This document shows positions 10,101-63,545 of a DNA stretch of 64,000 nucleotides, piece by piece. Below the pieces are notes generated by a model. The model was not told where the DNA came from. It made no database searches and saw only the letters and a program-made list of their open reading frames with translations. The position numbers and the translations under genes are program-made. The stretch comes from an uncultured Pseudomonadales bacterium (GTDB lineage: Bacteria; Patescibacteriota; Microgenomatia; UBA1400; UBA1396): NCBI GenBank assembly GCA_964598125.1, contig CAZRAG010000002.1, positions 373-64,372 of the forward strand, written 5' to 3'. Positions within the stretch are counted from its first letter, which is position 1; every line of letters begins with the position of its first letter.

Positions 10101-10195
10101 ACAACAAGGAATATCTTTCCCACTTCTTCTGCCTGGAAGGATATTCCTGGGAATATCCTTCTTGAGGAATTCAATAGGAAAGATATTCCTTGTTG
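10101..10195. repeat. nested palindromic element, family A, copy 1. Outer inverted repeat is 'AACAAGGAATATCTTTCC/GGAAAGATATTCCTTGTT'. Inner palindrome is 'CTGGAAGGATATTCC-TGGG-AATATCCTTC'.
   Basis: Read directly. Near-identical copies sit at 51078-51165 and 63397-63484. Confidence 0.8.
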
Positions 10196-12727: not shown

Positions 12728-12768
12728 AGAAGGTGACTCCCTGATCTAGAAAGTTCATCCTTGCTCGA

Positions 12769-39633: not shown

Positions 39634-39665
39634 GGAGAGAGGTTAATCAGGGGAGGATTGAATTC

Positions 39666-39733
39666 CTTGAGTAAGGAGTATCCTTGCTCAAGCCAACTCA
39701 ACTTCACTTGAGCAAGGATACTCCTTCTTTTTT
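39666..39733 (+). terminator. family-B palindromic element copy (20-bp stem 'AAGGAGTATCCTTGCTCAAG...CTTGAGCAAGGATACTCCTT' followed by CTTTTTTCG). Acts as a rho-independent terminator after giant gene 1.
   Basis: Read directly. Related copies at 45133-45186, 57565-57623 and 60700-60763. Confidence 0.75.
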
Positions 39734-39748
39734 CGCTACAATGGCTAA

Positions 39749-42700
39749 GTGGGTGTGCGCAAAATCCGATCAGTATCCGCTAAGCGATCCAGAATAGGGT
39801 CTTTTCCCCGTCATTTTTTTTCTTTCCCCAAGCTCTCTTTTACCAATAAACGCTCCCGCTGGCCGCTCCTTATTGCTCTGCTTATTATTCTCGGAGCCAT
39901 TCCGGCCGCCATTTTTCTCAATTCCCGAGCCAAACCGGTAGCCGCCACTTGGTGGAACGCCAGCTGGCAGTATCGGCAGCGGGTGGATATTACCAACGCC
40001 AATGCCTCGGCTCTCACCGATTTTCAGATCAGTTTCAACCTGGACACGGAAACTCTCATAACCGCTGGGAAATTGCAATCAAACTGTTTGGATCTTCGCG
40101 TAACGGATAATCAGGGACAGGAAATTCCATTTTGGATCGAAGAAAATAATCCCGGATGCAACAATGCGGCCACAAAAATCTGGGTCAAAGTTCCCCAAGT
40201 TCCCACTTCTGGAAGCACCATTTATGTTTACTACGGGAATGCAACGGCAACAGCCGCGGTAAATAATGATGGCAACAAAGTTTTTGAGTTTTTCGATGAT
40301 TTTAACGGCAGCGCACTTAATGCAGCCAAGTGGCAAGACTGGTTCACCACCGCTTCCACCAACACCTACACGCAATCGGCTGGTGTACTGCAAATCACCA
40401 CGAGTGGTTGCAACAACGGTCTGCGAACAAAAAATCTTAACCAATCCGACGTACGGATTCGCACGCGCATGATTGGTCAAAGTGATGCTGGTTTGCTGGC
40501 TCGCGTCACTGATAACGACCATCTCTATCTCATGCGAACCGATATCGGAACCGCCGCCACCGACTACTACCTTCGCAACAGCAGTTGGACCAGTCTTGGT
40601 GGAATTTTCACTGATTTTGGAGACTGGAGTGTTTTTCGCATTGTTGAATTCAGGGTCGTTGGCACAGCCCTTTCTTCTACCGTTGACGAACAAACTATGA
40701 ATAGCATCACCAACACCACTTTTACTTCTGGTGGCATTGGCTTGCGCAAATGTGGTGGAAACCCAAGTTTTGACTGGATCGTGGTCGCGAAGCCCGCTTC
40801 ATCGGAACCGACCTCAACCCTCGCCACCGAAGAAACCACTCCCGGCCCCGTGGTAGAACTCAAGTTTGACGAAGGCGGCGGTTCGCAGGCCAAAGACAGC
40901 AGTGGCTTTAAAAATCATGCCAGTGTCCCCAGTTCAACGCAGTGGAAATCCGACGATGAATGTATTTCGGGCAAATGTCTTTTCTTTGATTCCACCGATG
41001 ACCGAATCATCATGTCCAATAATCAAACACTGAACAACACGAAACAACTCGGTTTTAGTTTCTGGTGGAAACCAATGGGGTATCACACAAATTACGCCTA
41101 TCAAATTCTGCGCAAGTTTAGCGGAACCAGTGATGCTAACCTGGCACTCTACTATTTTGGTGACTACAACGGCACATATCCTGAAAACAAAGGTCGCACT
41201 ATGGTTTATGGAACTGCCGGAGGGGCTTGGAAAGGTATCTCCAATCCCTACACCTTTTCCGAGGCAGAACTGGGACAATGGCACCACATTGCGTTTTCCT
41301 ACGATTCTGTTTTGGGTGGTCAACTGTATGTTGATAGCAAACCCGTTGGCGGGCGAACTGGTTCAGGAGAACTGTCAGTTAATACCTATGATCTGATTCT
41401 TGGCTCCGGTTCTATGGCCCAGTACTATGACGATTTTCGCTTCTACCCCTACGCCATCACCCAAGAACAAGTCCTGAAAGACTTCAATCGCGGTTCGGCC
41501 GTGATGATTGGTGCGCAGGAACAAGGAGCGCTCACCAATGGCCAAGTTGGCTACTGGAAGATGGATGAGACTACCGGCACAACGGTTGCTGATTCATCAG
41601 GATTTGGCAACCATGGCACGCTGCTTGGTGCACAAGAAACCGGTACAGCCGAAGCGGCCAGCACCACCACAACTGTCGTTGATACCGCAAGCACCGCCCT
41701 TTCAACCGTGAATGATGCCTACAACGGACAGTATTTGGTAATAACCGGAGGTTCTTGCGGCATAAGCACCAATACTTTTGGGACCATCACCGACTACGAT
41801 GGCACCACCAAAACCCTCACTGTTAGTCCGGCCTTAAGTGCGCAAGTCGATGGCTGTACTTACCAAATCCGCCACCAAAATGCGGGTAAATTCGGCAACG
41901 GCCTAGGCTTTGACAGTAAAGATGACCGAGTCCAAATTGGCAGCTCCACCCAGTTTGATTTGAGTAGCGGTGACTTTGCTCTGGCCTCCTGGATCCGTCA
42001 AACTGGCACCCAAGATTTGCGAAAAATTTTCTTTAAGGGCAACCCTTTTTGTGATGCCTGTGAAGCTGGATATTTTCTGGGCGTTCATGCGGGCAGTCCC
42101 CGTTTCTCTGTCGATTTGAGCAGCAACACCGGTGACATCAAATCGGTCTACAACAACAGTATCTTAGTGAATGATGGCCAGTGGCACCACATTCTGGGAC
42201 AACGAAAGGGCGACATGCTTGAACTTTGGGTGGATGGCTTGCAAGTGGCCACCCTGGCATTACCAACTGGAGCTACTATCAACTACGGCGCGGCATCAAA
42301 TCTGATTATTTCCGATGCTTCCTATGCATTTGATGGTTCTCTGGATGAAGCGCGTATTTTTTCGCGCTCTTTTTCTGCTGATGAAATTGGTAATTTATAC
42401 CGCTATGCTCCCGGACCTACCGCGCACTACAAATTGGACGAGGGTTCAGGCACGACAACCATTACTGATTCCTCCGGCAATAATAATTCTGGCACCATGA
42501 CCGGCTTCGCCGCCAGCTCCTGGGTTCCTGGAAAATTTGGTAAAGCACTCACGTTCTCTCGCAGCACCAGCACACGCATCGATCTGGGCACGCTCTTTAC
42601 CAATGTTTCTACGGGTTTTTCTGGTTCCGTCTGGATAAAACGCAGTGGCACCGCCTACAACAACGACCCTTTGGGAAATAAAATCTACACGGGGAACAAT

Positions 42701-45133
42701 GGTGGTTGGCGAGTCCTTGGCCTTGATACCAATGTATTCTCCTTTGTTGCTTCGACCGGACAGGTCAACTTTGGCACCATTGGTACTGACTGGACGCATC
42801 TGGCTTGGAGTTATGATCCCGTCACCGGTGTTTTAACCACATACGTGAACGGGAAAAAAGCAAATTCCGGTAGTGTCAGTTTTCTCCCCACAACCAACAA
42901 TCTTTTTATGGGCATGGGGTATGGCAGCACCTCCCAAAACTTTATCGGTATTCTTGATGATGTTCGTCTCTATAACTACGCTCGCACCTCGCAGCAAATT
43001 GTGCAGGACATGAATGCCGGCCACCCAACGGGTGGTAGTCCGGTTGGCAGTCAAACGGCGTACTTCCCCTATGACGAAGGCAGCGGCAATACGGCTCACG
43101 AAAAAGTCTCCCCTGTCTATGACGGCACCCTCATGTGTGGTGGCACGAGCTGCACTAACCCCACCTGGAAATCGGATGGTCGGGTGAATTCGGCCATTTA
43201 CTTTAGCGCCGACACCGGAATGCAGGGTGACTACGTCCGCTCCGCACCCATCAATATGGGGACAACTCTTGGTGACAAGCTTACGGCAAGCATGTGGATC
43301 AAACCCGTTGCCACTGAAGACAACTATGGCTGGATCATTCGCAATGGTCATAGTACTGACGAAAACTATTCGGTGAAGTTAACAAACTATTCTGCTGGAA
43401 AATGGCGGGTGGGTGCGGAGTACTACGACACCACTTTTCGTAACATTGCTGGCGCTCAAAATGTGGTTCCCCAAGATACTTGGAGCCATTTGGCTGTGGT
43501 CTTTTCCAACGGTGAATACATAAAAATTTATCTGAATGGCCAGTTCATTGAACAAGTTGCCTGGAGCGGCAGCCCATCCGTCGCGGCGAACACAAACTTT
43601 TATGTTGGCGGTCACGTTGGCACTATTAACCAGTTTTTTGGCGGCTACATTGACGAGGTAAAAATCTATAATTCTGAATTGACTGCGGACCAAATCAAGC
43701 TGGATTACAACTTAGGTGTTTCTTCTAGTTACGGTGGTTCAAGTGTTGACGAGGCCAGCAGTTTGAACGACGGTGCCGGGTCCGCACCGGTGGCCGAGTA
43801 TCATTTTGAAGAAATGACCGGGGCGCAAGCTAAAGACACCAGTGGCAATAATCATAACGGTACCATCACGGGAGCCCAGTGGGAGCCAGCCGGAAAAGAA
43901 GGCGCGGCCCTGCGATTTGATGGAAGTGATTATGTTGACGTGGGTAACGTGGGTGATGAAGCCACAAACTTTACGGTGTCGGCATGGATTAATCCATCAC
44001 TCATGGCCAACCAGGAAATATCGGTCATTACCAAAAGGAATGCTACCACTGCCGGCTGGGCATTAGGAATAAACGCTAACGGAACTACGCCTCTAGTCAT
44101 TTGGCGGACATTCAATGGCGGTGGGCAGTATTCCATCTCAGGGACTCGACAATTAGCTATTAATAACTGGTACTACATTACGGTTGTTCATCAGGATGGT
44201 ACAGCATCTTTGTACGTGAATGGTGTGTTTGATCGCTCAGCCAGTATTACGAATCCAGCTACTGACACCACCGCCTTGAGAATTGGTTATTTGAATGGTG
44301 GTGCAGTAAGTTATCAAGGAAAAATCGATGAAGTAAAAATCTACGACTACGCCCGTACTCCTGCCCAAATCGCTTACGACTATAATCGCGGCGGACCAGT
44401 CGCTCATTACAAACTTGATGAGTGTCAGGGTAGCACCACCTACGACACCAGTGGCGGTAATAATGGAACACTCATTGTTGGTGCAACAGGGGCGCAGACT
44501 TCCGTCGGCACCTGTAATTCCAGTGGTACAGCCTGGGGAAATGGCGCCACCGGCAAGTTTGAATCAAGTCTGAATTTTGATGGCACGGATGATTACATTG
44601 ATACCGTTGCTTCCTCGACTTTACTTCCAGGGGATACTTCTTTTTCTCTTGGTGGATGGTTTAAAACATCAACCCTCTACTCAACAGCTGATAACAATAT
44701 AGGAGGCCGAATTGTGAGCTTGTACCGGAGCGTTGATGGGGCCGGCTTCTCCTCCAAAGTTGGCCTTGGGTTTTATGGGGATAACACCGATACTCTTATG
44801 GTTTTTTCTAATGGGGCCAGTGGATCAACCTCTTTGCGAAAAACCAACAGTGGTTTTAATGACAATCAGTGGCACCATCTCTTCACCACCTATGACAGCA
44901 CAACCAACATACTTAAGCTTTTTTATGATAGCGTGGAAGTGGGTTCGCAAAATGCCAGTACTATCTATTCCTCTGAGTCCGAGCAAATGAAAATTGGAAC
45001 ATTTGGCGGGACGAGTACAACGGGAACCTTTAATGGCCAAATCGACGACGTTCGCGTATACAACTATGCCCTCTCCTCAACGCAAGTCAAACAGGTGATG
45101 AACGAGGGAATGGCGATTAAGTTTAATAACTAA
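39749..45133 (+). CDS. giant surface protein 2 (1794 aa), DUF2341-like + multi-LamG paralog
   Basis: 'WWNASWQYRQRVDITN' DUF2341-like signature, then multiple LamG repeats. GTG start 6 nt after TACAAT. Shares conserved modules with the other three (e.g. 'ARTSQQIVQDMNAGHPTGGSPVGSQ' and 'YDYARTPAQIAYDYNRGGPVAHYKLDECQG'). Confidence 0.85.
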   Translation: MGVRKIRSVSAKRSRIGSFPRHFFSFPKLSFTNKRSRWPLLIALLIILGAIPAAIFLNSRAKPVAATWWNASWQYRQRVDITNANASALTDFQISFNLDTETLITAGKLQSNCLDLRVTDNQGQEIPFWIEENNPGCNNAATKIWVKVPQVPTSGSTIYVYYGNATATAAVNNDGNKVFEFFDDFNGSALNAAKWQDWFTTASTNTYTQSAGVLQITTSGCNNGLRTKNLNQSDVRIRTRMIGQSDAGLLARVTDNDHLYLMRTDIGTAATDYYLRNSSWTSLGGIFTDFGDWSVFRIVEFRVVGTALSSTVDEQTMNSITNTTFTSGGIGLRKCGGNPSFDWIVVAKPASSEPTSTLATEETTPGPVVELKFDEGGGSQAKDSSGFKNHASVPSSTQWKSDDECISGKCLFFDSTDDRIIMSNNQTLNNTKQLGFSFWWKPMGYHTNYAYQILRKFSGTSDANLALYYFGDYNGTYPENKGRTMVYGTAGGAWKGISNPYTFSEAELGQWHHIAFSYDSVLGGQLYVDSKPVGGRTGSGELSVNTYDLILGSGSMAQYYDDFRFYPYAITQEQVLKDFNRGSAVMIGAQEQGALTNGQVGYWKMDETTGTTVADSSGFGNHGTLLGAQETGTAEAASTTTTVVDTASTALSTVNDAYNGQYLVITGGSCGISTNTFGTITDYDGTTKTLTVSPALSAQVDGCTYQIRHQNAGKFGNGLGFDSKDDRVQIGSSTQFDLSSGDFALASWIRQTGTQDLRKIFFKGNPFCDACEAGYFLGVHAGSPRFSVDLSSNTGDIKSVYNNSILVNDGQWHHILGQRKGDMLELWVDGLQVATLALPTGATINYGAASNLIISDASYAFDGSLDEARIFSRSFSADEIGNLYRYAPGPTAHYKLDEGSGTTTITDSSGNNNSGTMTGFAASSWVPGKFGKALTFSRSTSTRIDLGTLFTNVSTGFSGSVWIKRSGTAYNNDPLGNKIYTGNNGGWRVLGLDTNVFSFVASTGQVNFGTIGTDWTHLAWSYDPVTGVLTTYVNGKKANSGSVSFLPTTNNLFMGMGYGSTSQNFIGILDDVRLYNYARTSQQIVQDMNAGHPTGGSPVGSQTAYFPYDEGSGNTAHEKVSPVYDGTLMCGGTSCTNPTWKSDGRVNSAIYFSADTGMQGDYVRSAPINMGTTLGDKLTASMWIKPVATEDNYGWIIRNGHSTDENYSVKLTNYSAGKWRVGAEYYDTTFRNIAGAQNVVPQDTWSHLAVVFSNGEYIKIYLNGQFIEQVAWSGSPSVAANTNFYVGGHVGTINQFFGGYIDEVKIYNSELTADQIKLDYNLGVSSSYGGSSVDEASSLNDGAGSAPVAEYHFEEMTGAQAKDTSGNNHNGTITGAQWEPAGKEGAALRFDGSDYVDVGNVGDEATNFTVSAWINPSLMANQEISVITKRNATTAGWALGINANGTTPLVIWRTFNGGGQYSISGTRQLAINNWYYITVVHQDGTASLYVNGVFDRSASITNPATDTTALRIGYLNGGAVSYQGKIDEVKIYDYARTPAQIAYDYNRGGPVAHYKLDECQGSTTYDTSGGNNGTLIVGATGAQTSVGTCNSSGTAWGNGATGKFESSLNFDGTDDYIDTVASSTLLPGDTSFSLGGWFKTSTLYSTADNNIGGRIVSLYRSVDGAGFSSKVGLGFYGDNTDTLMVFSNGASGSTSLRKTNSGFNDNQWHHLFTTYDSTTNILKLFYDSVEVGSQNASTIYSSESEQMKIGTFGGTSTTGTFNGQIDDVRVYNYALSSTQVKQVMNEGMAIKFNN

Positions 45134-45186
45134 AAGGAGTCTCCCTGATCGAGTGCCTTTGGGTTCTCTTGATCAGGGAGACTCCC
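45133..45186. repeat. family-B palindromic element copy ('GGAGTCTCCCTGATCGAG...CTTGATCAGGGAGACTCC'), followed at 45205 by a degenerate 'TGATAAACCTCTCTCC' flank motif
   Basis: Read directly. Confidence 0.7.
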
Positions 45187-45719
45187 TATCCAAGCAACCT
45201 CTTTCTTGCCTGATAAACCTCTCTCCCTGGTTAGAATCTTGTCAGTTTTTGGTTGTATGTTACTTCTGTGACGTCAAGGTCGTTCATTATTCTTTCAAAG
45301 GTCCATGTTGTTTTTGAAACATTTCAAAACGCCCTTCTTCATCCATCAGTAGCAAAAGTACTCGGTGAAAAAATCATTGAACTGGGAAATCTTCTCCTTA
45401 TAGGTTTAGTCGTTACCGAAATCCTCCAAATAAACATTCGAGCTACGCCTATTAGTATGGGATTCATCGGATTTTTACTATGCTACACTTTGGGTGTGCT
45501 CATTCTGAGAAATGGAAAGGAGACACCATGACACTCTTTGGCGAATCACTCAATTTCTACATCATTTTTGGTGGGCTTTATTTGTTTCTTGGAGTCATGT
45601 TTCTCTTGGTTCTCACAGGCAAGAAAAAGAAAAAATAACTTCTTTTCTCACAGCACACTTTCACTTTTGAGTTTTCCTTCTCTGTAGTCCGTCCCACATA
45701 ATTCCACTACAATGACTAG

Positions 45720-48700
45720 GTGGGAGTTACCAAAGTTCGATCAGTGTCTGCCAGGCGAGCAATACCAAAAATTGGCTGGCCTTTTAGCAGATTTTCATTT
45801 CGACTGCCAACGCTCACTTTTACAAAAAAGCGTTCTCGTTGGCCCCTCCTTGTCGCCCTTCTTTTTCTCCTCATTGCCCTTCCTACCGCGTTCTATCTCA
45901 ACTCCCGCACTCCAAAAGTCGAAGCTGCCTGGTGGAATCCTGGGTGGGCGTACCGTCAGCGAATTGCCATTACCAATAGTAACGGGAGCGACTTAACCGA
46001 TTTTCAAGTCAGCTTTACCCTTGATACTGCTGCTCTCATTACCAACGGCAAACTGCAAAATGATTGTGATGATCTGCGAATCACCGATCATCTTGGAAAA
46101 GAACTCCCGTTTTGGATTGAAGAAAATAATCCTGGCTGTAACAACTCCGCTACCAAGATTTGGACCAAGGTACCAAATATCCCCACCAGTGGCGCCGCTC
46201 TGTACGTGTACTACGGCAATATCTCCGCTACAAATAACGAAAAAGGAAATGAGGTTTTTCCTTTTTTTGATGGTTTTAATTCTGCTGCCCTAAACACACA
46301 AATTTGGGGGAACACCGGAACTTATAATTTTGCTTCAGGTGCAATCACCGTAACAGCTGGCGCGGTGTACTCAAAGTCAACCATCTTGTCGACCAACCAA
46401 AACTACGTGTATGAAATGCGCAGTAAATGGGCGGCTGGTGGCAGTCAGTGGGCGGGACTCGATATTGCGAGTACTCAAAGCGTCTTAAGTAGCAACAGCG
46501 GCGCCAGTGCCTTGACTTTCTTCATGACGCTCAACGGCACACCAACTTTGGGAGCATACGTTTCGTCAGGTGTCTCTGGCTATAACGTGACCGGTGGGAC
46601 ATCACAATTTACCACCACTCCTAATACTTACGAAGTCATTGGCTACACGCACACACCAACTACGTTAAGTTTTTATCGAAATCAAACCCTTACCAATTCG
46701 TATTCCGACACTGCCAACTTTGCCCCGTATGTATGGCTGGGCTATTTTATGGGAGCGGGTTCGGGTTCGCAGGACATTATGGACATGACGGTTGACTGGG
46801 TCCGTGTCCGCAAGTATGCCGCTACCTCTCCCGCCACCACTTTAGCGACGGAAGAAAGTACCCCTGGCCCAGTCGCTCACTGGAAATTCGACGAGGGTGG
46901 TGGCAGCGCCATCAAAGATAGTAGTGGCAATAATCGAACTGGCACCCTTTCCAACGCCACTTGGTCAACAGGTGATTGTGTAAGCGAAAACTGTCTCCAA
47001 TTCAACGGGACCAATGGTTATGCCGATACCGGTTATGACTACAGCATGGAATACAACTCCAGCACAAGTTTTTCGGTATGGATCAGACCGTCAACCATCA
47101 ACACCGGCGGAAAAGTCAAAACGATTTTGGGCAAAGTGAGTTATGAATACATTCTCTCGCAACTTGATGACACAATTATGTTCCGCCAATGGACTGATTC
47201 TGGCAACGACACAATTGCGATCCAAACACCGAGTATTTTGGAAGCAAATCAGTGGTATCAAATCACCCTTGTGTATGATGGGACCGCTCACACTACCAAT
47301 CTGTATGTGAATGGTACTCTGCAAGCGAGTGGCGCCAACTTGCAACCGTCGTTTGTGAACCGAACCGAGACATTGAAAATAGGCTATGGGTATGGTTGGA
47401 ACGTTTCACCCACACCCTATTTTTCCGGAAAAATTGATGAGGTAAAAATTTTTCCCTATGCTCTTACCGCTGCTCAAATTAAAAAAGAGTTGAACTTTGG
47501 ATCAGCCGTAACCGTGGGCTTTGAAAACCAAGGGAGTCTGGGCGAGGGTTTAGTGGCTTATTGGCCCATGAACGAAACTACTGGCACGACCATCGCCGAT
47601 TATTCTGGCAACAATGCCACGGTGACACTCACCAACGCCCAAGAGACCGGCACCAGTGAAGCGGCCGGCACCACTACTCTTGTAGTCGACGCGGATAACG
47701 CAACCATTTCCAACTATGACGATGCCTATAACGGCATGGTTATGGAGGTTACCGGAGGAGCGGGTTGTGGGATAGGATCTGGTTCAAGCAATCGGATTCG
47801 CTTTATCACTGATTATGTTGGTGCAACAAAGACCTTTACCGTGGGCAGCGCCTTTCCCGCCGAAACCGATAACTGTACTTTTCAAGTTTTGCATCAAAGT
47901 CGTGGGAAATTTGGAGGTGGAGTCTACCTTGATGGTGTGAATCATGAAGGTGGCAACGACACTATGGAACTCACGGATATTCGTTTTGATTCCGATGATC
48001 CTTGGTCTTACTCGGTTTGGCATAGAATTCCCGCTGGCTCAACGGTTAACTGGAATAGTTTTTTTGGTGGACCCCAAAGTGGTTATGGTGGCTACTGGCA
48101 GTACCATGGCGGTGGCAATCTCATGTGGTATCAAGATTACTACGAGAGTACGGTGTATGGAATCAACGATAGCGTCGTGAATTTTGGAGATGAATTGCCC
48201 TACGACAAATGGTTCATGCTAACGCTCACCTATACGCCCACTGATACCTTGCACGGTACGGCAAAAATTTATGTCGACAGTGAGCTCGTGCATTCAAGAA
48301 GTGTCACGCTCAGTGCTCGTACCACCTACTTTACCGTGGACAAACTTGCGGGGGCAGGTGGGCGATCTTTTGAAGGCCATATGGATGAGGCCCGTTTATA
48401 TAACCGTGTACTGGCCGACAGCGAAATTGTTAATCTCTACCGCTGGGCACCAAAACCAAAAGCCTACTATCCCCTTGATGAGGGTACCGGGACAACCACG
48501 ATCGACAAAGGCGGTGGCACCAGTGTCACTGCGAGTAGCACCACCTGGACCGCTGGCAAATATGGCCAGGCACTGCATTTTAATGGCACAAGCTCAACAG
48601 TGGACATTCCGAATATTTCCCACCCCTATGCGTTTACCAAAATGGCTTGGGTCAAAATTCACGCCGCTGACTGTGTTAACGAGAGTCGTTGTTCTATCTT

Positions 48701-51065
48701 GGCGCCCTATTTTGAAATTGTCAGCAATGGTCAGTTGCAAATGTATTCGTATCAGCTGAACCCGAATGGCTGGCATTCCAGTACAGTGAATCCAGGTGAT
48801 AATGTTTGGACACACGTAGCCGTTTCCTATGATGGCGTGTATCTGCGATTGTTTGTAAACGGAAAGCAGACAAAAGAAGTTGCCGCTTCTCAGCTTCGTT
48901 ACTTTGACGACACGACCCACCTTGGATCTCTTTCGAATATTCGGTGGTTTGCCGGTGATATTGATGAGGTGAAGGTGTACGACTACGCCCGTACCACCCA
49001 ACAAATTGTCCAGGACATGAATGCAGGTCATCCGGTTGGTGGCAGTCCAGTGGGGAGTCAGTTGGCGTACTGGAAGCTAGATGAAGCGAATGGAACAACG
49101 GTACATGACAGCGTTTCCAGTAATGTGGGTACCATTGCCAGTCCTATTTGGTCAAACAGCTGCAAAACAAATAGCTGTCTGCAGTTTGACGCTACGGATC
49201 GATCAGTCACCGGAAACTTAGCAAGTTCAGTGGCAAATCAATCTTTTACTATCACTGGTTGGATTTTTCAGGATAGCGACGCCCCGTCCGCAAACAGTTG
49301 GTTCTCTTTAGGCGGTGGTGGGACAAACAGCTGGATCCACCTGCGCATGTATTCCAACGGTACCATGCGTTTTGGTTTTTACTCTAATGACTTGGATTCT
49401 CCTTCTGGTGTTTTTACGCGCAATGTTTGGCATCATGTGGCGTATACCTATGATGCGGCGAGTAAAGTTCGTGGTATCTGGCTTGATGGAAAACAAGTGG
49501 CGAGTGCCGTTTCAACCTCAGATTTTTTGGGTTCGGCTGCTTATACCATTGGTAAATTTGCTAGCGAATACTGGAAAGGAAAAGTGGATGAAGTCAAAAT
49601 GTACTCCTCTGCCCTTACCGCCGAACAAATCGCCATTGATATGAATGGCGGCGCCTCTACCAATTATGGGACGGGAAGTAATGAGGCGGCCTCTCTGAAT
49701 GATGGTGCTGGTGACGCGCCCATCTTGGAATATAACTTTGATGAAATGACGGGAACAACCGCCAAAGATACCAGCGGTCAAAATGGCAACGGGACAATTA
49801 ATGGTGCCACTTGGAATGCCACCGGCAAGAGTGGCAGTGCCCTGGAATTCGATGGCAGCTCGGGTTACGTGGATTTGTATAGTTCGAGTTTTGCAAATGC
49901 TTTCAACACGGCTGAAGGAACGGTTCATGCATGGGTAAAAGTGAGAGATAGTTCTGTCTGGTCCGACAGCACCCTTCGAAGAATTTTTCTCATCCGTACA
50001 GATATTAACAATTACGTCTCCGTATACAAGTTAGCGGATAATCAACTTTCTGGAATCTACAGAGCTAATGGCGTAAGTGAATCGGTGAGTTTTACTCAAA
50101 CTCCAACTGACTTTTTCTTGGTAACTATTACTTGGAGTAAATCCGATGACGAGGTGAGGGTGTATTTCAACGGAAAACAACAGGGATCCACCCAAACCGG
50201 TTTAGATACCTGGGTTGGAAGCCTCAGTACGAATATGTGTTTGCTTGGTTCCAATAGTATGCCGTCGGCTACGTATGTGTGGAATGGCCTTATCGACCAA
50301 GTTCGAATCTATGATTACGCCCGCACTCCCGCTCAGATCTCTTACGATTACAATCGTGGGGCACCAGTGGCCCAGTACAAGTTTGATGAGTGCCAGGGGG
50401 CAACGGTTTACGACACCAGTGGCAACAACTTGCATGGAACTTGGAGTGGCAGCAGCGGGACGCAAACTTCGGTGGGTACTTGTACCACCAGTGGTTCGGC
50501 TTGGGGAAATGGCGCCAGTGGAAAGTATTCAAGTAGTCTCAACTTTGATGGCTCAGACGACATGATTACCGTTCCCCACCCAACTGGTGGCCAACTCGAC
50601 TTTGGCAGTACATCCAGCTTTAGCATGGCTGCTTGGGTAAAAACAAGCGACACCACCGGAACATACCACACCATTTTAGAAAAGGGTGGATACTCCACAA
50701 CCAGCCGCTTTACCTTGTTTACCTATGGTGACGGAAAAGCTCGCGTCTATATTGCCGATGGCACGACAAGTCGGAATATCCAAAGCAATAGCACCGTCAA
50801 TGACGGCCAATGGCACCATATTGTGGGACAGATAAATCGTGAGGACTCCACCATTCAAATTTTCATTGACGGAAAACTTGATCAAACTGCCCCCCTGAAT
50901 TTGTCTGGATCAGTAACGAGTACCAACGTTTTACGAATTGGTGGACCTGGACCTTTTTCATTCAACGGACAAATAGATGATGTCCAAATTTTTAACTACG
51001 CTTTGTCTGCCGACCAAATTGCCAAGGTGTACAACCAGGGCTCGTCGATCCGGTTTGGGAACTAA
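45720..51065 (+). CDS. giant surface protein 3 (1781 aa), DUF2341-like + multi-LamG paralog
   Basis: 'WWNPGWAYRQRIAITN' DUF2341-like signature, then LamG repeats. GTG start 6 nt after TACAAT. Shares the conserved C-terminal module 'YDYARTPAQISYDYNRGAPVAQYKFDECQG...SGSAWGNGASGK'. Confidence 0.85.
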   Translation: MGVTKVRSVSARRAIPKIGWPFSRFSFRLPTLTFTKKRSRWPLLVALLFLLIALPTAFYLNSRTPKVEAAWWNPGWAYRQRIAITNSNGSDLTDFQVSFTLDTAALITNGKLQNDCDDLRITDHLGKELPFWIEENNPGCNNSATKIWTKVPNIPTSGAALYVYYGNISATNNEKGNEVFPFFDGFNSAALNTQIWGNTGTYNFASGAITVTAGAVYSKSTILSTNQNYVYEMRSKWAAGGSQWAGLDIASTQSVLSSNSGASALTFFMTLNGTPTLGAYVSSGVSGYNVTGGTSQFTTTPNTYEVIGYTHTPTTLSFYRNQTLTNSYSDTANFAPYVWLGYFMGAGSGSQDIMDMTVDWVRVRKYAATSPATTLATEESTPGPVAHWKFDEGGGSAIKDSSGNNRTGTLSNATWSTGDCVSENCLQFNGTNGYADTGYDYSMEYNSSTSFSVWIRPSTINTGGKVKTILGKVSYEYILSQLDDTIMFRQWTDSGNDTIAIQTPSILEANQWYQITLVYDGTAHTTNLYVNGTLQASGANLQPSFVNRTETLKIGYGYGWNVSPTPYFSGKIDEVKIFPYALTAAQIKKELNFGSAVTVGFENQGSLGEGLVAYWPMNETTGTTIADYSGNNATVTLTNAQETGTSEAAGTTTLVVDADNATISNYDDAYNGMVMEVTGGAGCGIGSGSSNRIRFITDYVGATKTFTVGSAFPAETDNCTFQVLHQSRGKFGGGVYLDGVNHEGGNDTMELTDIRFDSDDPWSYSVWHRIPAGSTVNWNSFFGGPQSGYGGYWQYHGGGNLMWYQDYYESTVYGINDSVVNFGDELPYDKWFMLTLTYTPTDTLHGTAKIYVDSELVHSRSVTLSARTTYFTVDKLAGAGGRSFEGHMDEARLYNRVLADSEIVNLYRWAPKPKAYYPLDEGTGTTTIDKGGGTSVTASSTTWTAGKYGQALHFNGTSSTVDIPNISHPYAFTKMAWVKIHAADCVNESRCSILAPYFEIVSNGQLQMYSYQLNPNGWHSSTVNPGDNVWTHVAVSYDGVYLRLFVNGKQTKEVAASQLRYFDDTTHLGSLSNIRWFAGDIDEVKVYDYARTTQQIVQDMNAGHPVGGSPVGSQLAYWKLDEANGTTVHDSVSSNVGTIASPIWSNSCKTNSCLQFDATDRSVTGNLASSVANQSFTITGWIFQDSDAPSANSWFSLGGGGTNSWIHLRMYSNGTMRFGFYSNDLDSPSGVFTRNVWHHVAYTYDAASKVRGIWLDGKQVASAVSTSDFLGSAAYTIGKFASEYWKGKVDEVKMYSSALTAEQIAIDMNGGASTNYGTGSNEAASLNDGAGDAPILEYNFDEMTGTTAKDTSGQNGNGTINGATWNATGKSGSALEFDGSSGYVDLYSSSFANAFNTAEGTVHAWVKVRDSSVWSDSTLRRIFLIRTDINNYVSVYKLADNQLSGIYRANGVSESVSFTQTPTDFFLVTITWSKSDDEVRVYFNGKQQGSTQTGLDTWVGSLSTNMCLLGSNSMPSATYVWNGLIDQVRIYDYARTPAQISYDYNRGAPVAQYKFDECQGATVYDTSGNNLHGTWSGSSGTQTSVGTCTTSGSAWGNGASGKYSSSLNFDGSDDMITVPHPTGGQLDFGSTSSFSMAAWVKTSDTTGTYHTILEKGGYSTTSRFTLFTYGDGKARVYIADGTTSRNIQSNSTVNDGQWHHIVGQINREDSTIQIFIDGKLDQTAPLNLSGSVTSTNVLRIGGPGPFSFNGQIDDVQIFNYALSADQIAKVYNQGSSIRFGN

Positions 51066-51077
51066 AAAGACAAGCAT

Positions 51078-51165
51078 TCAGGAATATCTTCGCACACACT
51101 TTAGCCTGGAAGGATATTCCTAGGAATATCCTTCCAGAGGAAAACATTGGTAAAGATATTCCTTG
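51078..51165. repeat. nested palindromic element, family A, copy 2, lying between giant genes 3 and 4
   Basis: 'TCAGGAATATCTTC...CCTGGAAGGATATTCCTAGGAATATCCTTCCAGAGG...GTAAAGATATTCCTTG'. Confidence 0.8.
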
Positions 51166-51204
51166 CACGTAGTCCACGTATGGCAATTCCTTTACAATGA
51201 ATGG

Positions 51205-54200
51205 GTGGGAGTTACCAAGTTACAATCAGTCTCGGTGCGCCGCCGGCAAAGCAGGCGGCGAGGGTTTCGGGCATTCCGACTTGCTGGTTTTCGATTTCCC
51301 AAAGTCCCCTTTTCGTTACCCCATTTGCTAACCAACAAACAACTCCTTAACCCACGCCGTTCTCGTTGGCCGCTCCTTTTGGGCATTTTGTTTTTACTGA
51401 TTGGCATTCCGACAGCATTTTGGCTCAACTCCCAAACAGAGGAGGTTGCCGCCTGGTGGAACCCTGGCTGGATGTACCGCCAACGTGTCGATATCACCAA
51501 TGGCAGCGGCAGTAATTTAACTGATTTTCAAATTGGCTTTACTCTCGACACCGCTGCACTCATCACTGCTAGCAAACTACAAAATGATTGTGATGACCTA
51601 CGAATTACTGACCATCAGGGGACTGAACTCCCGTACTGGATTGAAGAAAATAGTCCTGGTTGTAATAATGCTGCAACTAAAATTTGGGTGAAGTTACCTT
51701 CAATTCCAACAAGTGGTGGATCATTCTTTCTGTACTACGGAAATGCTCAGGCTATAAAGTCGGCAGACCAAAATGGAAACAAGGTTTTTGTCTTTTTTGA
51801 TGATTTTTCAGCCACTTCCATCGACGCCTCAAAATGGACACAAGGAACAATCGCCGCCACCTCTGGAACAAATTTTTCTATTTCATCAGGCAAGCTGATT
51901 GGCGGAAATACGAACCGCTACATTCAATCGGTCAACACCTTTACAGGTGATTACATAGCCGAGACTAGGGTTTATGAAACAACCGCTGCCAATAATGGGT
52001 TTACCAGCATCGGCTTTTATGCTTCTTCGAGTAACACCATTAGCATCCTTAACCATAGCGGAACATTTTATGTACGAAACGACTCCGCTTGGCCAAGTTA
52101 TGGAAGCTACACAAAAGATCAATGGGAACACGACAAAATTAAAGTCGTTGGAACAACGGCCACACTCTGGAAAGTTGGAGAATCGTCGGGTTCGCTCACA
52201 GGATCCCCAACAAATAGCGGAATTAGTGGCGAGTACTTTCGAATTGGTCCTCGTGGTGATGATGGCGCATACAATCAAAATTATTCTGCCTCTTGGGACT
52301 GGGTGTATGTGCGCAAAGCCGTCACAACCGAACCTTCAACCTCACTCCAATCCGAAGAAACCACCCCGGGACCCGCCGCCTACTGGAAGCTCGATGAGGG
52401 AAGTGGAAGCACCATCAAAGATTCGGTCAACAATAACACCGGTACCATCAATGGCGCCGAGTGGAAACCGGAAACTGAGTGCGTTTCCGGAAAATGTCTC
52501 TACTTTGATGGCACAACTGACTTTGTTTCGGTGGCCAATAACAAAACGCTTAACCCCACTGAACAACTCTCTGTTTCCTTGTGGGTGAAAAATCAGCGAG
52601 CCACTGGCAAACATACCTTTTTACTCAAAAAGGCCAATGGGGTTGGCGGCTATGGCTTTTATTTAACAACCACGGACACTCTCAGTTTTTTTGTGTACTA
52701 CTTTTCGGGTAGTCCTAACTATCAATTTTGCGAAATTCCTGCTTATACCCTTCCCAAAGATCAGTGGACCCATCTCACTGGCCAGTTCAAGACCAATGAT
52801 TTCCTTAAAATTTTTGTAAATGGCGTAGAAAAAGTAAGTTGTGTCCCCAGTCAGAGCACCAATCTTGGCGTTGATACCAGCACTTTAAATTTGGGATACC
52901 AAGGGTGGTGGGGAGCAGACAATGCTTACTTTAAAGGATATCTCGATGAAATAAAAATCTTCCCCTACGCCCGTACTCAGGAACAAATTCTGCAGGACTA
53001 CAACCTTGGTTCAGCAGTGGCAATTGGTCAGCAACAGCAGTCGTACATGAGTGAAGGCTTAGTGGGCTACTGGAAAATGGATGAAGCCAGTGGCACCACG
53101 GTAGCCGATGCCTCCGGCAATGGACGAACCGGCACCCTCACCAACGCCCAAGAAACTGGCACCGGCGAAGCGGCTGGAACAAACACAACGCTGGTAGATG
53201 CTGACAATACGGCACTATCCGCCGACGACGATACCTATAACGAAATGATTCTGGAGGTTACTGGTGGCGTTGGCTGCGGTATTGCTATCGGGCAAAAAAG
53301 GTTCATCTCTGACTATACCGGATCCACCAAGACTCTCACTGTTTCCTCTGCCTTTACGGCCGAAACCGATAGTTGTACTTTTTTGATTGACCATCATGGC
53401 ACCGGCAAGTTTGGTTCTGGATTGGCTTGTTCCGGAAAATCTTCTGGAGCAAATAGCGGTGATTTTGTGAGTGTTTCTCTTCCCAGCATGAATGAAGTAA
53501 GTGCCTTTACCTGGTATAAATTTCACCCACGAGGAACTGGCTCAAACACCATTATGCGCATGCAAAATGATGACATTGGAATAACCATCAATCCAAGCGG
53601 CCCGTCGCGTTTCCACATTGACTCATATGCCACGCTCTTTTCCTACATCGATATTCCCAATTCAGCTGATGGAAATTGGCATTACATTGGCCTCACCTAT
53701 GACGGCACCACTATGACGGCTTACTTTGATGGCCAAGCCATTGGCACGAAAACAGGAAGCTACAGCATCGCCGCTGGAACCATGAATATTGGTGATCGTA
53801 GCGACGGCTATGGAGAACATTTCAATGGCTGGATTGACGAAACGCGCGTCTACAACCGCGCCCTCAAACCAGACGAAATAGCCAGCCTCTACCGGTTTGC
53901 ACCAGGTCCAGTGGGTTACTGGAAAATGGATGATGGCAGTGGGAGCACCGCTACCGACAGTTCCGGCAATGGCAACAATGCCGCCCTCGACGGTTCGACC
54001 TATTGGCGTGATGGAAAGTTTGGAGGATCTCTCCTCAATAGTTTTTCAAGTGGGTCGGATGGAGTTATCACCCAGACCGCAATCTTAAATCCTCTCGCTC
54101 CAAATCTGACTGTTGAAGCCTGGTTCAAGGTGAACGCCTACAACGCTACCCACTGGCAAACCATTGTTGAAGGCAGTGGAAGTCTCAATGCAGGTACAGG

Positions 54201-56556
54201 CTATTACCTTGGCTTCCCACCAGCATCAAGTACTAACCTTTACTGGCGGGTGGGTAATGGTACCGTCTTCGACGCGGACATCAACTACGCGAATCACGGA
54301 ATTCAAGTTGGCGATTGGGTCCATGTCGCCGGAACTCTCGGGCCAACGACTGCCAAAATGTATGTTAACGGAAAACTTGTCAAGACGGATCCCCACACCA
54401 TTTTCAATATCGGATATGGCGTCTATCCCATTACCATTGGCAGTCTCTCCTATGCAACAGGCGCCCACACTCTTGACGGTTTGATCGATGAAGTCCGCAT
54501 TTACAACTACGAACGAACGGCTCAGCAAATCGTTGAAGACATGAATGCTGGCCACCCCGCAGGCGGAAGTCCCGTGGGAAGTCAACTCAGCTATTGGCCT
54601 TTTGATGAGCAAAATGGAACAGTTGCTCACGATCGTACCCAGACACAAAATCTCACCGTTACAAGCGCGAGCTGGAAATCTCAATCAGACTGCAAGGTGA
54701 ATGGCTGTTTGGACTTTGACAACGGCGTAGCTGGCAGTACCGCTTATTTCGATGACACGACCGCCAGTATTTATGATCTCACGAACGATTTTACATTTGG
54801 CGCCTGGGTGTATCGAACAGGCACACCAGAATCCCAAGCCAGAATTATTAGCAAAGGAGACCGATATCTTTTATACACAACCAATACCAATATTGTGCAG
54901 TGTCACATGCAGGGGCTTACGCCGACAGCTCTATCTGCAACATCTGCTCTGCCACTCAACTCATGGACTCATGTACTGTGTACGTACAAAGACAATGTCC
55001 GCAAACTCTACATTGATGGTGTCCTCAATGCACAAGACGCTCCCACCGGAACCATGACTCCTGATGATCTTGACCTGGTCATTGGTAACTTTAGTACACC
55101 AGGTGATAGTTATCGTTTCCGGGGAAAGATTGACGAAGTAAAGCTCTATTCTTCTGCTCTCACAGCGGAACAGGTTAAACTCGAAGTGAATCAAGGCTCT
55201 TCGGTGGCTTATGGAGGAACAACAAGTGAAGCCTCCGATTTAAGTGATGGAGCAGGCAATCCGCCGGTCTTGGAATGGAAATTTGACGATAAAACCGGCA
55301 CCTCGGTTACCGACACCAGCGGTAATGGCAATAACGGCAGCATTGTTTCGACACCGAGCTGGAAGTCGAGCAGTTCGTGCAACGAAGGATCTTGTCTCGA
55401 ATTTACCTCAAATTCCCAGTATGTTACGGCTGCCGACCCTGGCACCAGTGTTCTCGATATTACCGGACCAGTAACTCTGGAGGCTTGGGTATGGTGGGAT
55501 CAGTTCAAGGATTACGGTGTTGTTGCCAATAAAGGAAGCGGAGGCACAGCCGCAACATTCAACTATGGTATCTGGTCATATTCAACATCGATAAACTGTT
55601 TTATCGGCAATGGTACAGCAACCAATAGCTTGGGATATAACGCTGCCCTTGTTAGTACTAATGCTTGGCACCATCTTGTGTGTGTCGCTGATGGAACAAA
55701 TCTTTCCATGTATATTGATGGCAAACGAGTAACTCAAGTGGGCCAAACAGTCACTCCCGCCGCTAACAATGCAGCCTTTATTGTGGGAGAAAATGGTCGA
55801 TCAGTTGATGGGAAAATCGATACTGTTAAAGTCTACAACTACGCCCGTACTCCCGCCCAAATCGCCTATGATTACAACCGCGGTACACCTATCGCCCACT
55901 GGAAACTCGATGAGTGCCAAGGCACCACTCTCAACGATAGCAGTGGCAACAACTATTCCGGAACCTGGAGCGGCAGTGGCGGCACGCAAACCTCAGCCGG
56001 CACCTGCACCACCGCCAGCACCGCTTGGGGAAATGGTGAGTCAGGAAAGTTTAATGGGAGCCTTAATTTTGATGGTACAGATGACAGGATTTCGATTCCA
56101 GGTGCCACAAATATCACGGTAGGAAATGATATTACCGTTTCGGCCTGGGTAAAAACCACAGCTTACTCTCAAGAACCATTTGTCAGCAATCGGTCTGGGG
56201 CTGGTGGCCGAATGTACTTTGGTTTGGGTTTGGGGAAAGCCTTTTTATATTACAGTGGTGCATCTCCAGCAGGAGTCAACGGGACAGCTCGCATTGACGA
56301 CAACGTTTGGCATCACGTAGTTTATGTCCGTTCAGGCACAACCACTACGCTCTATGTAGATGGAAAACAGGATGCCACAGCCACTCAGACTGGTGTTGGT
56401 GCATATGCCGACACCATGTATGTTGCTCATGATGTAGCCAATAATGAATATTATCCTGGACAAATTGACGACATCCAAATCTTTAACTACGCCCTTTCGG
56501 CTGATCAAATCGCCAAACTCTATAATGGCAGTTCGGCTGTTCGTTTTGATGATTAA
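51205..56556 (+). CDS. giant surface protein 4 (~1783 aa from the GTG start), DUF2341-like + multi-LamG paralog
   Basis: 'WWNPGWMYRQRVDITN' DUF2341-like signature, then LamG repeats. The conserved GTGGGAGTTACCAAG start lies 6 nt after TACAAT, and the ORF-track ATG at 51163 is upstream of that promoter. C-terminal module 'YNYARTPAQIAYDYNRGTPIAHWKLDECQG'. Confidence 0.85.
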   Translation: MGVTKLQSVSVRRRQSRRRGFRAFRLAGFRFPKVPFSLPHLLTNKQLLNPRRSRWPLLLGILFLLIGIPTAFWLNSQTEEVAAWWNPGWMYRQRVDITNGSGSNLTDFQIGFTLDTAALITASKLQNDCDDLRITDHQGTELPYWIEENSPGCNNAATKIWVKLPSIPTSGGSFFLYYGNAQAIKSADQNGNKVFVFFDDFSATSIDASKWTQGTIAATSGTNFSISSGKLIGGNTNRYIQSVNTFTGDYIAETRVYETTAANNGFTSIGFYASSSNTISILNHSGTFYVRNDSAWPSYGSYTKDQWEHDKIKVVGTTATLWKVGESSGSLTGSPTNSGISGEYFRIGPRGDDGAYNQNYSASWDWVYVRKAVTTEPSTSLQSEETTPGPAAYWKLDEGSGSTIKDSVNNNTGTINGAEWKPETECVSGKCLYFDGTTDFVSVANNKTLNPTEQLSVSLWVKNQRATGKHTFLLKKANGVGGYGFYLTTTDTLSFFVYYFSGSPNYQFCEIPAYTLPKDQWTHLTGQFKTNDFLKIFVNGVEKVSCVPSQSTNLGVDTSTLNLGYQGWWGADNAYFKGYLDEIKIFPYARTQEQILQDYNLGSAVAIGQQQQSYMSEGLVGYWKMDEASGTTVADASGNGRTGTLTNAQETGTGEAAGTNTTLVDADNTALSADDDTYNEMILEVTGGVGCGIAIGQKRFISDYTGSTKTLTVSSAFTAETDSCTFLIDHHGTGKFGSGLACSGKSSGANSGDFVSVSLPSMNEVSAFTWYKFHPRGTGSNTIMRMQNDDIGITINPSGPSRFHIDSYATLFSYIDIPNSADGNWHYIGLTYDGTTMTAYFDGQAIGTKTGSYSIAAGTMNIGDRSDGYGEHFNGWIDETRVYNRALKPDEIASLYRFAPGPVGYWKMDDGSGSTATDSSGNGNNAALDGSTYWRDGKFGGSLLNSFSSGSDGVITQTAILNPLAPNLTVEAWFKVNAYNATHWQTIVEGSGSLNAGTGYYLGFPPASSTNLYWRVGNGTVFDADINYANHGIQVGDWVHVAGTLGPTTAKMYVNGKLVKTDPHTIFNIGYGVYPITIGSLSYATGAHTLDGLIDEVRIYNYERTAQQIVEDMNAGHPAGGSPVGSQLSYWPFDEQNGTVAHDRTQTQNLTVTSASWKSQSDCKVNGCLDFDNGVAGSTAYFDDTTASIYDLTNDFTFGAWVYRTGTPESQARIISKGDRYLLYTTNTNIVQCHMQGLTPTALSATSALPLNSWTHVLCTYKDNVRKLYIDGVLNAQDAPTGTMTPDDLDLVIGNFSTPGDSYRFRGKIDEVKLYSSALTAEQVKLEVNQGSSVAYGGTTSEASDLSDGAGNPPVLEWKFDDKTGTSVTDTSGNGNNGSIVSTPSWKSSSSCNEGSCLEFTSNSQYVTAADPGTSVLDITGPVTLEAWVWWDQFKDYGVVANKGSGGTAATFNYGIWSYSTSINCFIGNGTATNSLGYNAALVSTNAWHHLVCVADGTNLSMYIDGKRVTQVGQTVTPAANNAAFIVGENGRSVDGKIDTVKVYNYARTPAQIAYDYNRGTPIAHWKLDECQGTTLNDSSGNNYSGTWSGSGGTQTSAGTCTTASTAWGNGESGKFNGSLNFDGTDDRISIPGATNITVGNDITVSAWVKTTAYSQEPFVSNRSGAGGRMYFGLGLGKAFLYYSGASPAGVNGTARIDDNVWHHVVYVRSGTTTTLYVDGKQDATATQTGVGAYADTMYVAHDVANNEYYPGQIDDIQIFNYALSADQIAKLYNGSSAVRFDD

Positions 56557-56951: not shown

Positions 56952-57167
56952 AGAGCTTGCTCGCTCATTTCAGCATAACTTCGTTACTGGCTGATTCGCT
57001 GCGCTTCCTCAGATAGTTGAGCGTAATGCGCCTCGCGGTATCAGTTTCTCTTTCGAATACCCGCTCGTGTGCATTACTTTGCTCAAGTATCGAACTCGCC
57101 TACGGCTGAATTCACCTCCAGCGGGATTCACAAACAAAAAATCCGCCCATGGCGGATATTTCGTTTG

Positions 57168-57240
57168 TGGACCCAAGGAGATTCGAACTCCTGACCTCTT
57201 CATTGCAAATGAAGCGCTCTACCAACTGAGCCATGGGCCC
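57168..57240 (-). tRNA. tRNA-Ala (anticodon TGC)
   Basis: Acceptor GGGCCCA with a G3:U70 pair, anticodon loop 'TTTGCAA', T-loop GGTTCGAATCC. 73 nt, CCA not encoded. The terminator hairpin 'ATCCGCCATGGGCGGAT' + T-run follows on the minus strand. Confidence 0.85.
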
Positions 57241-57377
57241 AACCACCGAGTTGTTCTTTTAGATATTTTCTCTTTTTGACAAAATCTAAAACAATTTTCT
57301 TCTCCATCAAAGTTTTTACTTTACAACGAATCTCAAGGCTTTAGCCTTCGTGAGGTGTAAGGGGAAAACTTTGATTG

Positions 57378-57451
57378 TGAGAGTACCTGGACTCGAACCA
57401 GGGACCTCTGTCTTATCAGGACAGCGCTCTAACCAACTGAGCTATACTCTC
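57378..57451 (-). tRNA. tRNA-Ile (anticodon GAT)
   Basis: Acceptor GAGAGTA/TACTCTC, anticodon loop 'CTGATAA', T-arm CCTGG-TTCGAGT-CCAGG. 74 nt. Confidence 0.85.
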
Positions 57452-57564
57452 GTTTTTCACCAGACCAGTGATAACAATCACCTCTGATAAAAGGCGATAC
57501 AGCGTATTGTAACAAAAGTTTTCTAAAATGGGAGAGAGGTTGATCGGGAAAGGAAAAACAACTC

Positions 57565-57623
57565 AGAGTAAGGAGTCTCCTTGATCGAGAGTGCCTCTCG
57601 GCCCTCGATCAAGGAGACTCCCT
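57565..57623. repeat. family-B palindromic element copy ('GAGTAAGGAGTCTCCTTGATCGAG-loop-CTCGATCAAGGAGACTCC')
   Basis: Read directly. 17-bp perfect stem. Confidence 0.75.
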
Positions 57624-57665
57624 CTTGATTCGCCCAGACTTTTTCTGCCATTATGGTGAAAGCCT

Positions 57666-60694: not shown

Positions 60695-60699
60695 AAAAA

Positions 60700-60763
60700 G
60701 GAAGGAGTCTCCTTGATCGAGGGTGCTTGAAGACACTTGATCAAGGAGACTCCTTACTCAGAG
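60700..60763. repeat. family-B palindromic element copy ('AAGGAGTCTCCTTGATCGAG-loop-TGATCAAGGAGACTCCTTACTCAGAGG'), followed at 60778-60794 by the flank motif 'CTGATCAACCTCTCTCC'
   Basis: Read directly. Confidence 0.75.
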
Positions 60764-60809
60764 GATCTTTCCCTCACCTGATCAACCTCTCTCCCGCTAC
60801 AATATACCC

Positions 60810-63346: not shown

Positions 63347-63383
63347 CAAAAAAAGGGCATCGCAAGATGCCCTTTTTGTTTTG
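63347..63383. terminator. bidirectional rho-independent terminator ('AAAAAAAGGGCATCGCAAGATGCCCTTTTTGTTTTG')
   Basis: Stem-loop flanked by an A-run and a T-run. Confidence 0.7.
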
Positions 63384-63396: not shown

Positions 63397-63484
63397 CAAG
63401 GAATATCTTTTCATTTGTTTTTGCCTGGAAGGATATTCCTAGGAATATCCTTCCAGAGGAAAGGTCGGACAAAGATATTCCTTC
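63397..63484. repeat. nested palindromic element, family A, copy 3
   Basis: 'CAAGGAATATCTTT...CCTGGAAGGATATTCCTAGGAATATCCTTCCAGAGG...AAAGATATTCCTTC'. Confidence 0.8.
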
Positions 63485-63513: not shown

Positions 63514-63545
63514 AAAAAAAGGCGACCCTTTCGGATCGCCTTTTT
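63514..63545. terminator. terminator-like hairpin flanked by A7/T5, probably terminating the minus-strand 16S transcript
   Basis: 'AAAAAAAGGCGACCCTTTCGGATCGCCTTTTT'. Confidence 0.55.

Follow-up and report, generated by a model that had tools for sequence, protein, structure and literature searches.

The 64-kb stretch of DNA analysed here (the window) carries three copies of a non-coding, nested palindromic unit of about 88 bp, which we call family A, and five more copies were found in related metagenomic genomes. We put at about one half the probability that family A is a dispersed palindromic repeat of the REP/BIME/REPIN-like kind whose blocks are recognised by a trans-acting protein. The finding itself is real and statistically solid; family A is a new sequence family, and its geometry is unusually strict in comparison with that of REP-type repeats. 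An earlier sequence-only reading of the window had likened the unit to a MITE/REP-like mobile palindrome or to a multimeric protein-binding site. The REP part of the first idea gained support, since the unit is multi-copy and intergenic, shows turnover and inversion and is associated with assembly breaks, and the classical MITE part did not, since target-site duplications are lacking. The second idea is compatible with the helically phased boxes and fixed spacer lengths described below, and it ranks below the REP-like reading, which is the better supported of the two.

Copies and internal geometry of the family A unit

The window copies, all on the + strand, occupy positions 10107..10190 (A1), 51080..51163 (A2, the element under study) and 63399..63482 (A3). 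The related contigs L041 (A4, at 782), L042/L049 (A5, at 9564 of L049), L054 and L055 hold a single copy each, and half copies stand at the contig ends of L047, L048, L050 and L053. The three places named in the sequence-only reading were confirmed, and the core 32-mer CTGGAAGGATATTCCTAGGAATATCCTTCCAG was found at each, with 0 mismatches at 51106-51137 and 63425-63456 and 3 mismatches at 10133-10164; the 32-mer had no match in 100 shuffles of the sequence. Its description as a perfect 32-bp palindrome is correct for A2 and A3 and incorrect for A1, where the 3 mismatches (A to G at the centre, and CCAG to CTTG) make the central palindrome imperfect. An outer inverted repeat around the core had also been proposed, and its arms AAGGAATATCTT and AAGATATTCCTT do bracket each window copy (7 matches against 0.39 expected); A1 carries in addition a copy-specific stem extension, CAAC/GTTG, which widens the stem to 10102-10195. 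To call the copies near-identical overstates their likeness, as pairwise identity among A1, A2 and A3 is 80–82% overall, with about 60 positions invariant and the 13-nt and 8-nt spacers at background identity.

Each full copy contains four boxes of 11 bp that fit ARGA-N3-TCYT and together span 84 positions. In A2, box 1, the outer left arm (AGGAATATCTT; 51080..51090, +), is followed by spacer A (51091..51103, +), which is 13 nt long in every copy and free in sequence, and then by a left flank, GCCTGGA, that stands between spacer A and box 2 and includes an invariant GC at 51104-51105. The inner two boxes, box 2 (AGGATATTCCT; 51111-51121) and box 3 (AGGAATATCCT; 51122-51132), make up with their extensions the perfect 32-bp palindrome (51106..51137, without strand). 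After box 3 comes the right flank TCCAGAGGAAA, with AGGAAA at 51138-51143 directly after the palindrome, followed by spacer B (51144..51151, +; 8 nt in every copy, and likewise free in sequence), a single A, and box 4, the outer right arm (AAGATATTCCT; 51153..51163, +), which is the reverse complement of box 1. Box starts are 31, 11 and 31 bp apart in all seven full copies, no copy contains an indel, and the box separations of 11, 31, 42 and 73 bp are near whole helical turns (about 1, 3, 4 and 7). The module is dyad-symmetric except for the invariant GC on the left versus AG plus GAAA on the right; because the GC and AGGAAA flanks break the symmetry, a family A element has a defined orientation.

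The half-site that had been described as occurring four times per element needs redefinition. Each unit contains the exact 9-mer GGAATATCC only twice and the outer arms carry GGAATATCT, so that a count of four holds for the 8-mer GGAATATC or, better, for the 11-bp box ARGA-N3-TCYT. Within the window the 9-mer has no intergenic occurrence outside a full family A unit. A lone exact box AGGAATATCCT at 33522-33532, inside ORF 32912-34219 and without partner boxes nearby, is probably there by chance.

Between copies the spacers agree at about 38% of positions, a background level for their composition. Spacer A is pyrimidine-rich (8–12 of its 13 nt), and the five consensus-like copies all have C as its third base. 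A2 and A8 have 7 of 8 bases of the right spacer in common, and A4 and A8 have the 8-mer ACGAACTT of the left spacer in common; similarity across non-orthologous copies reaches 14 of 21, which is not significant (corrected p of about 0.1), and the A2/A8 and A4/A8 likeness is at most a suggestive hint, in the sequence, that units may have been copied spacers included. Pairing of spacer A with spacer B was no better within copies than between copies, and no match to spacer A in sequence from the same organism was better than those obtained with shuffles.

Each of A1–A3 is predicted to fold as one long hairpin on either strand (z = -6.6 to -10.1 against shuffles). The predicted hairpins span the whole unit, have energies of -39 to -60 kcal/mol, and consist of two stems separated by an internal loop of 15 x 15 nt; within the stem, the copies keep a GC/AG mismatch. 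Two inverted conserved sequences that form one long hairpin, the arrangement that characterises REPINs, are thus present in family A with the exception of the L054 copy, in which hairpin stability is mostly lost (z of 0.17 against dinucleotide shuffles and -2.4 against simple shuffles). Rfam matches over the family A element were all far below the gathering score, and in the window only the rRNA and tRNAs matched at gathering level. A sigma-70 scan found no promoter inside the element, and a sigma-54 promoter was rejected after the sequence was read and gave only poor partial matches.

Family A is rare and its distribution is narrow. A metagenome search of 241 million records returned only 2 exact matches to the family A core, a scan of 185,579 species genomes gave no matches beyond chance (with an 18-nt core, 40 singletons, mostly an acyl-CoA dehydrogenase coding motif), and there were no matches to the core in the viral sequence collection scanned. 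In the sequence examined, which is only part of a genome of roughly 1 Mb, the density is about 1 copy per 20 kb.

Genomic setting and turnover among relatives

Judged by its sequence, the host is a Woesebacteria-like CPR bacterium with a small genome (~1 Mb); homologs of the PEGA protein bear the names Candidatus Woesebacteria and Patescibacteria, and the gene order of the window matches that of a relative's 1.08-Mb contig. All eight family A copies are intergenic, as had been claimed for the three in the window. A1 lies 11–16 nt after the stop codon of a membrane-protein ORF (9060-10091) and upstream of a CHASE-PAS histidine kinase gene that has a -10-like TATACT at 10227-10232. A2 begins 14 nt past the stop codon of LamG giant gene 3 (end 51065); 29 nt separate its right end from a -10-like TACAAT box (51193-51198), and the GTG start of giant gene 4 at 51205 is a probable leaderless start. 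A3 is placed between the bidirectional terminator (63350-63377) of gene 61409-63331 and the terminator behind the 3' end of the 16S rRNA (~63514-63546), and A5 in the interval from which an MreB-like gene and the PEGA gene start in opposite directions. For A1, A2 and A4 a stop codon precedes the element by 5–16 nt, no intrinsic terminator intervenes, and the next start codon is 39–58 nt beyond the end of the element. Four of the five distinct family A loci are promoter-proximal, and the best-conserved one, the 16S-proximal site, is without a promoter. The right end of the element is 28–50 bp from the downstream -10 box, and we rejected a fixed phasing of element to box on account of this variation. 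GC skew is negative across the whole window, which places the three window copies, all in the same orientation, on one replichore.

In many genes of this lineage a TAnnnT -10 box stands 12–15 nt before the start codon and there is no Shine-Dalgarno sequence; we saw the arrangement at gene starts in L044, L046, L049 and L051 and at window positions 10227-10232 and 51193-51198, and the ribosomal-protein genes of the lineage carry AAGGAG. Taken as sequence, this suggests that leaderless mRNAs are widespread in the lineage, some of them with GTG or TTG starts.

Orthologous sites were compared in relatives whose 16S 3' segment (300 nt) is about 97.7–98.7% identical to that of the window. The histidine-kinase site is occupied by A1 in the window genome only. 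At the 69%-identical ortholog locus in L044 it is a 180-bp intergenic region without family A that holds a different repeat, family D (below), and in more distant relatives an MscL gene is in place there. At the PEGA site, L049 carries the element and so does the 79%-identical ortholog L047/L048, which is probably the window species and whose contigs start in the middle of the palindrome; between these two orthologs the blocks are identical, 2 of 8 positions of spacer B are common, and the flank has partly diverged. The same site is empty in the 70% ortholog L051/L052, with just 22 bp between the divergent genes. The 16S-proximal site, which holds A3 in + orientation in the window, is occupied in L054 and L055 in the opposite orientation between identical flanking genes. 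Once correctly oriented, the L055 copy matches the consensus except at 3 box-centre positions and in its spacers, and the L054 copy has a few more changes. Orthologous copies of family A, then, carry differing spacers. In all, the 16S site is occupied in three species and the PEGA site in two (with a third empty). Conservation in close relatives, on which the sequence-only reading had staked its proposal, is therefore found at two of the three testable sites, one of which is occupied in three species. An apparent excess of conservation in the box arms (Fisher p = 0.001 and 3e-5) was discarded as an artefact of aligning the inverted L054 and L055 copies in locus orientation; in element orientation the box arms of these copies are no better conserved than other block positions (p = 0.6 and 1).

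Four independent Logan short-read assemblies break within or beside the central palindrome (L047 at 1, L048 at 1, L050 at 1 and L053 at 4237), as is expected of a repeated palindrome. The practical consequence is that family A causes contig breaks in short-read assemblies of these genomes.

Identity of the repeat

A multi-copy, all-or-none unit that is placed between genes, turns over between species and can be flipped fits a REP/BIME/REPIN-like repeat. Family A resembles the REP/BIME elements of enterobacteria in that both are extragenic and multi-copy, consist of inverted copies of a short conserved palindromic unit joined by less conserved linkers, lie after stop codons and between convergent genes, vary in occupancy among related species and lack target-site duplications. 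In E. coli, REP/BIME elements also serve as binding sites for gyrase and IHF and as mRNA 3' hairpins. Family A differs from them in its unrelated sequence, which has no GTAG-type 5' tetranucleotide, in the rigidity of its 31-11-31 layout (without indels in seven copies) and in its ~1-Mb CPR host. With the RAYT-mobilised REPINs of Pseudomonas and others it has in common a unit of the ~90–100-nt class that forms one long hairpin, inverted segments that are highly conserved around more variable intervening sequence, and persistence of the family across related species. A REPIN, however, has conserved arms around a variable loop, whereas family A has outer and inner conserved stems around a large internal loop of fixed size. 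Genomes with RAYT-associated REP sequences also encode a cognate Y1 HUH transposase (PF01797), as a rule with repeats on both sides of it. It is a further difference from REPINs that no RAYT was seen in the part of the ~1-Mb family A genome covered by our search, which found neither a RAYT nor another transposase among the window ORFs scanned or in the Pfam listings of ~180 kb of related contigs. We found no paper linking CPR bacteria with REP-type repeats, and none containing the family A motif, in the full-text literature searched.

Small MITEs of the Correia, RUP and BOX type are likewise non-coding and dispersed, have terminal inverted repeats and insert between genes near promoters and terminators. 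Family A differs from these elements in that conservation is highest in its interior, at the central palindrome, and lowest in the spacers. The flanks of all eight copies, read directly, show no target-site duplications, for which the earlier proposal had suggested a check. Their absence fits REP/RAYT-type elements and not DDE-type MITEs, and we rejected a DDE-derived MITE in spite of the terminal inverted repeats. We also rejected an integron attC site: the conserved blocks contain neither of the core motifs RYYYAAC and GTTRRRY, the genes on either side of the element are no cassettes, and in one case these genes are divergent.

If family A is a REP-like repeat, the whole unit would be copied, or would formerly have been copied, into the few positions that a compact genome tolerates, namely immediately behind stop codons, in front of core promoters and in the gap between two terminators, where it could be lost, replaced or flipped. 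That the unit is copied as a whole, and that a protein recognises it, we infer from the comparisons above. The roughly 60 block positions would stay near-invariant because a trans-acting protein reads them, whether a mobilising enzyme, a host DNA-binding protein or both, and this protein might read either the folded two-stem hairpin, as RAYTs read REPs, or the duplex with its four boxes on one face, as a cooperative DNA-binding protein would. Since the spacers are almost randomised between copies, most family A copies are old; an ancestor's competence for transposition would not by itself keep the blocks of old, static copies intact, which indicates constraint at the level of the host and argues against a purely selfish element. 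Randomised spacers beside intact blocks, together with a promoter-less site kept in three species, also make it probable, as far as sequence comparison goes, that some trans-acting protein reads the blocks. If family A influences its neighbouring genes, it probably does so modestly, for example at a transcription boundary or through a 3' hairpin. The genomes that carry family A also contain further families of palindromic or dispersed repeats.

A possible but doubtful alternative is that family A is a host cis-element, a four-box platform for a putative dimeric, sequence-specific DNA-binding protein, whose copies would be alike through selection and not through copying. On this account, one dimer would occupy each quasi-palindromic box, all four boxes would face the same side of the helix, and the resulting ~85-bp complex would serve at gene boundaries as a regulatory, insulating or architectural site. 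Such an account would explain why box spacing is invariant in seven copies and near whole helical turns while spacer sequence is free, as in known multi-box operator arrays, such as those that dimeric repressors occupy cooperatively, where quasi-palindromic boxes in helical phase likewise keep the length of a spacer and not its sequence, and why blocks are conserved at orthologous sites in two to three species whose spacers and flanks have diverged. It also agrees with the right end of the element lying 39–58 nt upstream of four start codons of genes for envelope, surface or signalling proteins, and with A5, which stands between divergent genes whose -10 boxes are 12–15 nt before their start codons and which, given these leaderless starts, is probably outside both mRNAs. 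Family A differs from such arrays, however, in that the identical four-box unit is reused at unrelated loci, one of them promoter-less; it has no single box or box pair in the intergenic DNA of the window, unlike typical regulons, and we found no candidate binding protein. Moreover, the best-conserved site, that near 16S in three species, lies between two terminators without a promoter and varies in orientation, sites are gained and lost between close species, and the distance from element to -10 box is not fixed (28–50 bp). We think it improbable that the unit acts in RNA, transcribed at the 3' end of the upstream gene, whether by protecting that end, by inviting RNase III-type processing or as a terminator that lacks a T-tract. 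The very stable predicted hairpins (z down to -10), the conserved GC/AG mismatch in the stem, the placement of A1, A2 and A4 at 5–16 nt past a stop codon with no intrinsic terminator between, and the orientation of the element with the downstream gene at all four sites that have one would suit such a role. A3, however, follows a canonical terminator, A5 is upstream of both flanking transcription starts, the 16S-site copy is reversed in two species, little hairpin stability is left in the L054 copy, the spacers have no copy-specific complementarity, and there is no Rfam family at gathering score. An ordinary intrinsic terminator was rejected, as the sequence-only reading had already argued: no T-run follows any window copy and no terminator was called at the copies, quite apart from the positions of A3 after a terminator and of A5 between divergent gene starts.

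A site for site-specific recombination seems very unlikely. The 13-6-13 layout of the core, CTGGAAGGATATT-CCTAGG-AATATCCTTCCAG, resembles that of a tyrosine-recombinase core, to which the outer boxes could serve as accessory arm sites; spacer lengths are fixed, and the whole element is inverted between species at the 16S locus, a flip that could be a recombination product. The same inversion is equally possible through recombination between the element's own inverted arms, however, and three copies in the same orientation within 64 kb of one replichore would invite deletions; a symmetric 6-bp core gives no directionality, and neither the window ORFs scanned nor the related contigs yielded a recombinase gene. 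Least probable of all, and close to negligible in our estimate, is a solitary guide-like RNA scaffold whose stems would present 13- and 8-nt programmable segments in the internal loop. In favour of it, two fixed-length, sequence-free segments stand between invariant structured blocks, and the different spacers of orthologous copies would reflect turnover of targets. TIGR arrays, which have two short spacers per unit and are known in parasitic bacteria and phages (PMC12045711), offer a precedent in that two short variable segments of fixed length alternate with conserved repeats. By an equally faint chance, such scaffolds would be dispersed in CPR bacteria as distant analogues of tigRNAs, IS110 bridge RNAs and box C/D RNAs. 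Family A units are palindromic, solitary and not tandem, and at 84 nt rather than 36 more than twice as long as TIGR units; box C/D-like motif positions misfit, and neither a Nop-domain (Tas) protein nor an IS110 gene was found in the window or the related contigs, so that no copy adjoins a Nop-domain gene. We rejected membership of family A among TIGR arrays and tigRNAs, from which it departs in each defining feature that was tested. Spacer matches in the sequence examined are also no better than chance, and the left spacer is pyrimidine-rich, unlike guide sequences.

The reading of family A as a REP-like repeat matters for a streamlined and uncultured lineage, since CPR/Patescibacteria genomes are only about 1 Mb in size. 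Some 60 of 84 positions and all spacer lengths have stayed intact across three species, even where there is no gene to regulate, and a protein that reads the module, be it mobilising or a host architectural or regulatory one, would give a handle on genome dynamics or on transcription-unit boundaries.

Neighbouring repeats and genes

At least four repeat families share the tiny intergenic regions of this lineage. Family B, a second intergenic repeat found in either orientation, occurs in the window at 12727-12781, 39633-39733, 45131-45236, 57521-57624 and 60695-60795 and in L054 at ~6420-6520. It consists of a conserved box, GGGAGAGAGGTTGATC, followed by a hairpin with 20-bp arms (AAGGAGTCTCCTTGATCGAG) and a variable loop of 14 nt; in L054 the box is kept and the arm sequence is different yet fully compensated (AAGGTGTCACCTCACTCAAG), a true covariation. 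An AGGA-N3-TCCT box is common to families A and B, with 11 sites where 0.8 would be expected and a box spacing of 41–42 bp. The idea that one protein binds both families is weakened by L054, where the family B arms read AGGT-GTC-ACCT and the family A boxes are unchanged. Family D, a third dispersed repeat, is about 75 nt long, is not palindromic and has the form GGACAGCTCGATTCGACGA...GAGGAGAATCGCGCAGGCCG; it is found in L041 (4538-4612), in L044 (4016-4034 on the - strand, and 8660-8732) and in the window (34331-34349, -), and it has no match in Rfam. In L041, four GGRATGTCGCAC units lie in a hairpin with 44-nt arms after a terminator (4412-4506), and in a divergent intergenic region of L045 two hairpins are nested in an outer stem (3047-3150).

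The 16S rRNA gene (window 63700-64000, -) has its own terminator, and about 6 kb of protein-coding genes separate it from tRNA-Ile/tRNA-Ala (57167-57451, -); the window has no 23S gene, so the rRNA genes are unlinked. A small ORF at 1367-1624 (-) gives a weak match to a ParE-like toxin (E = 1.3e-4, below the Pfam cutoff). Four tandem paralogous genes, at 34414-39633, 39749-45133, 45720-51065 and 51205-56556, encode proteins of ~1,750–1,800 aa, each with an N-terminal membrane segment, DUF2341 and six LamG (Laminin_G_3) domains, and the gaps between these giant paralogs hold, in order, family B, family B reversed and family A.
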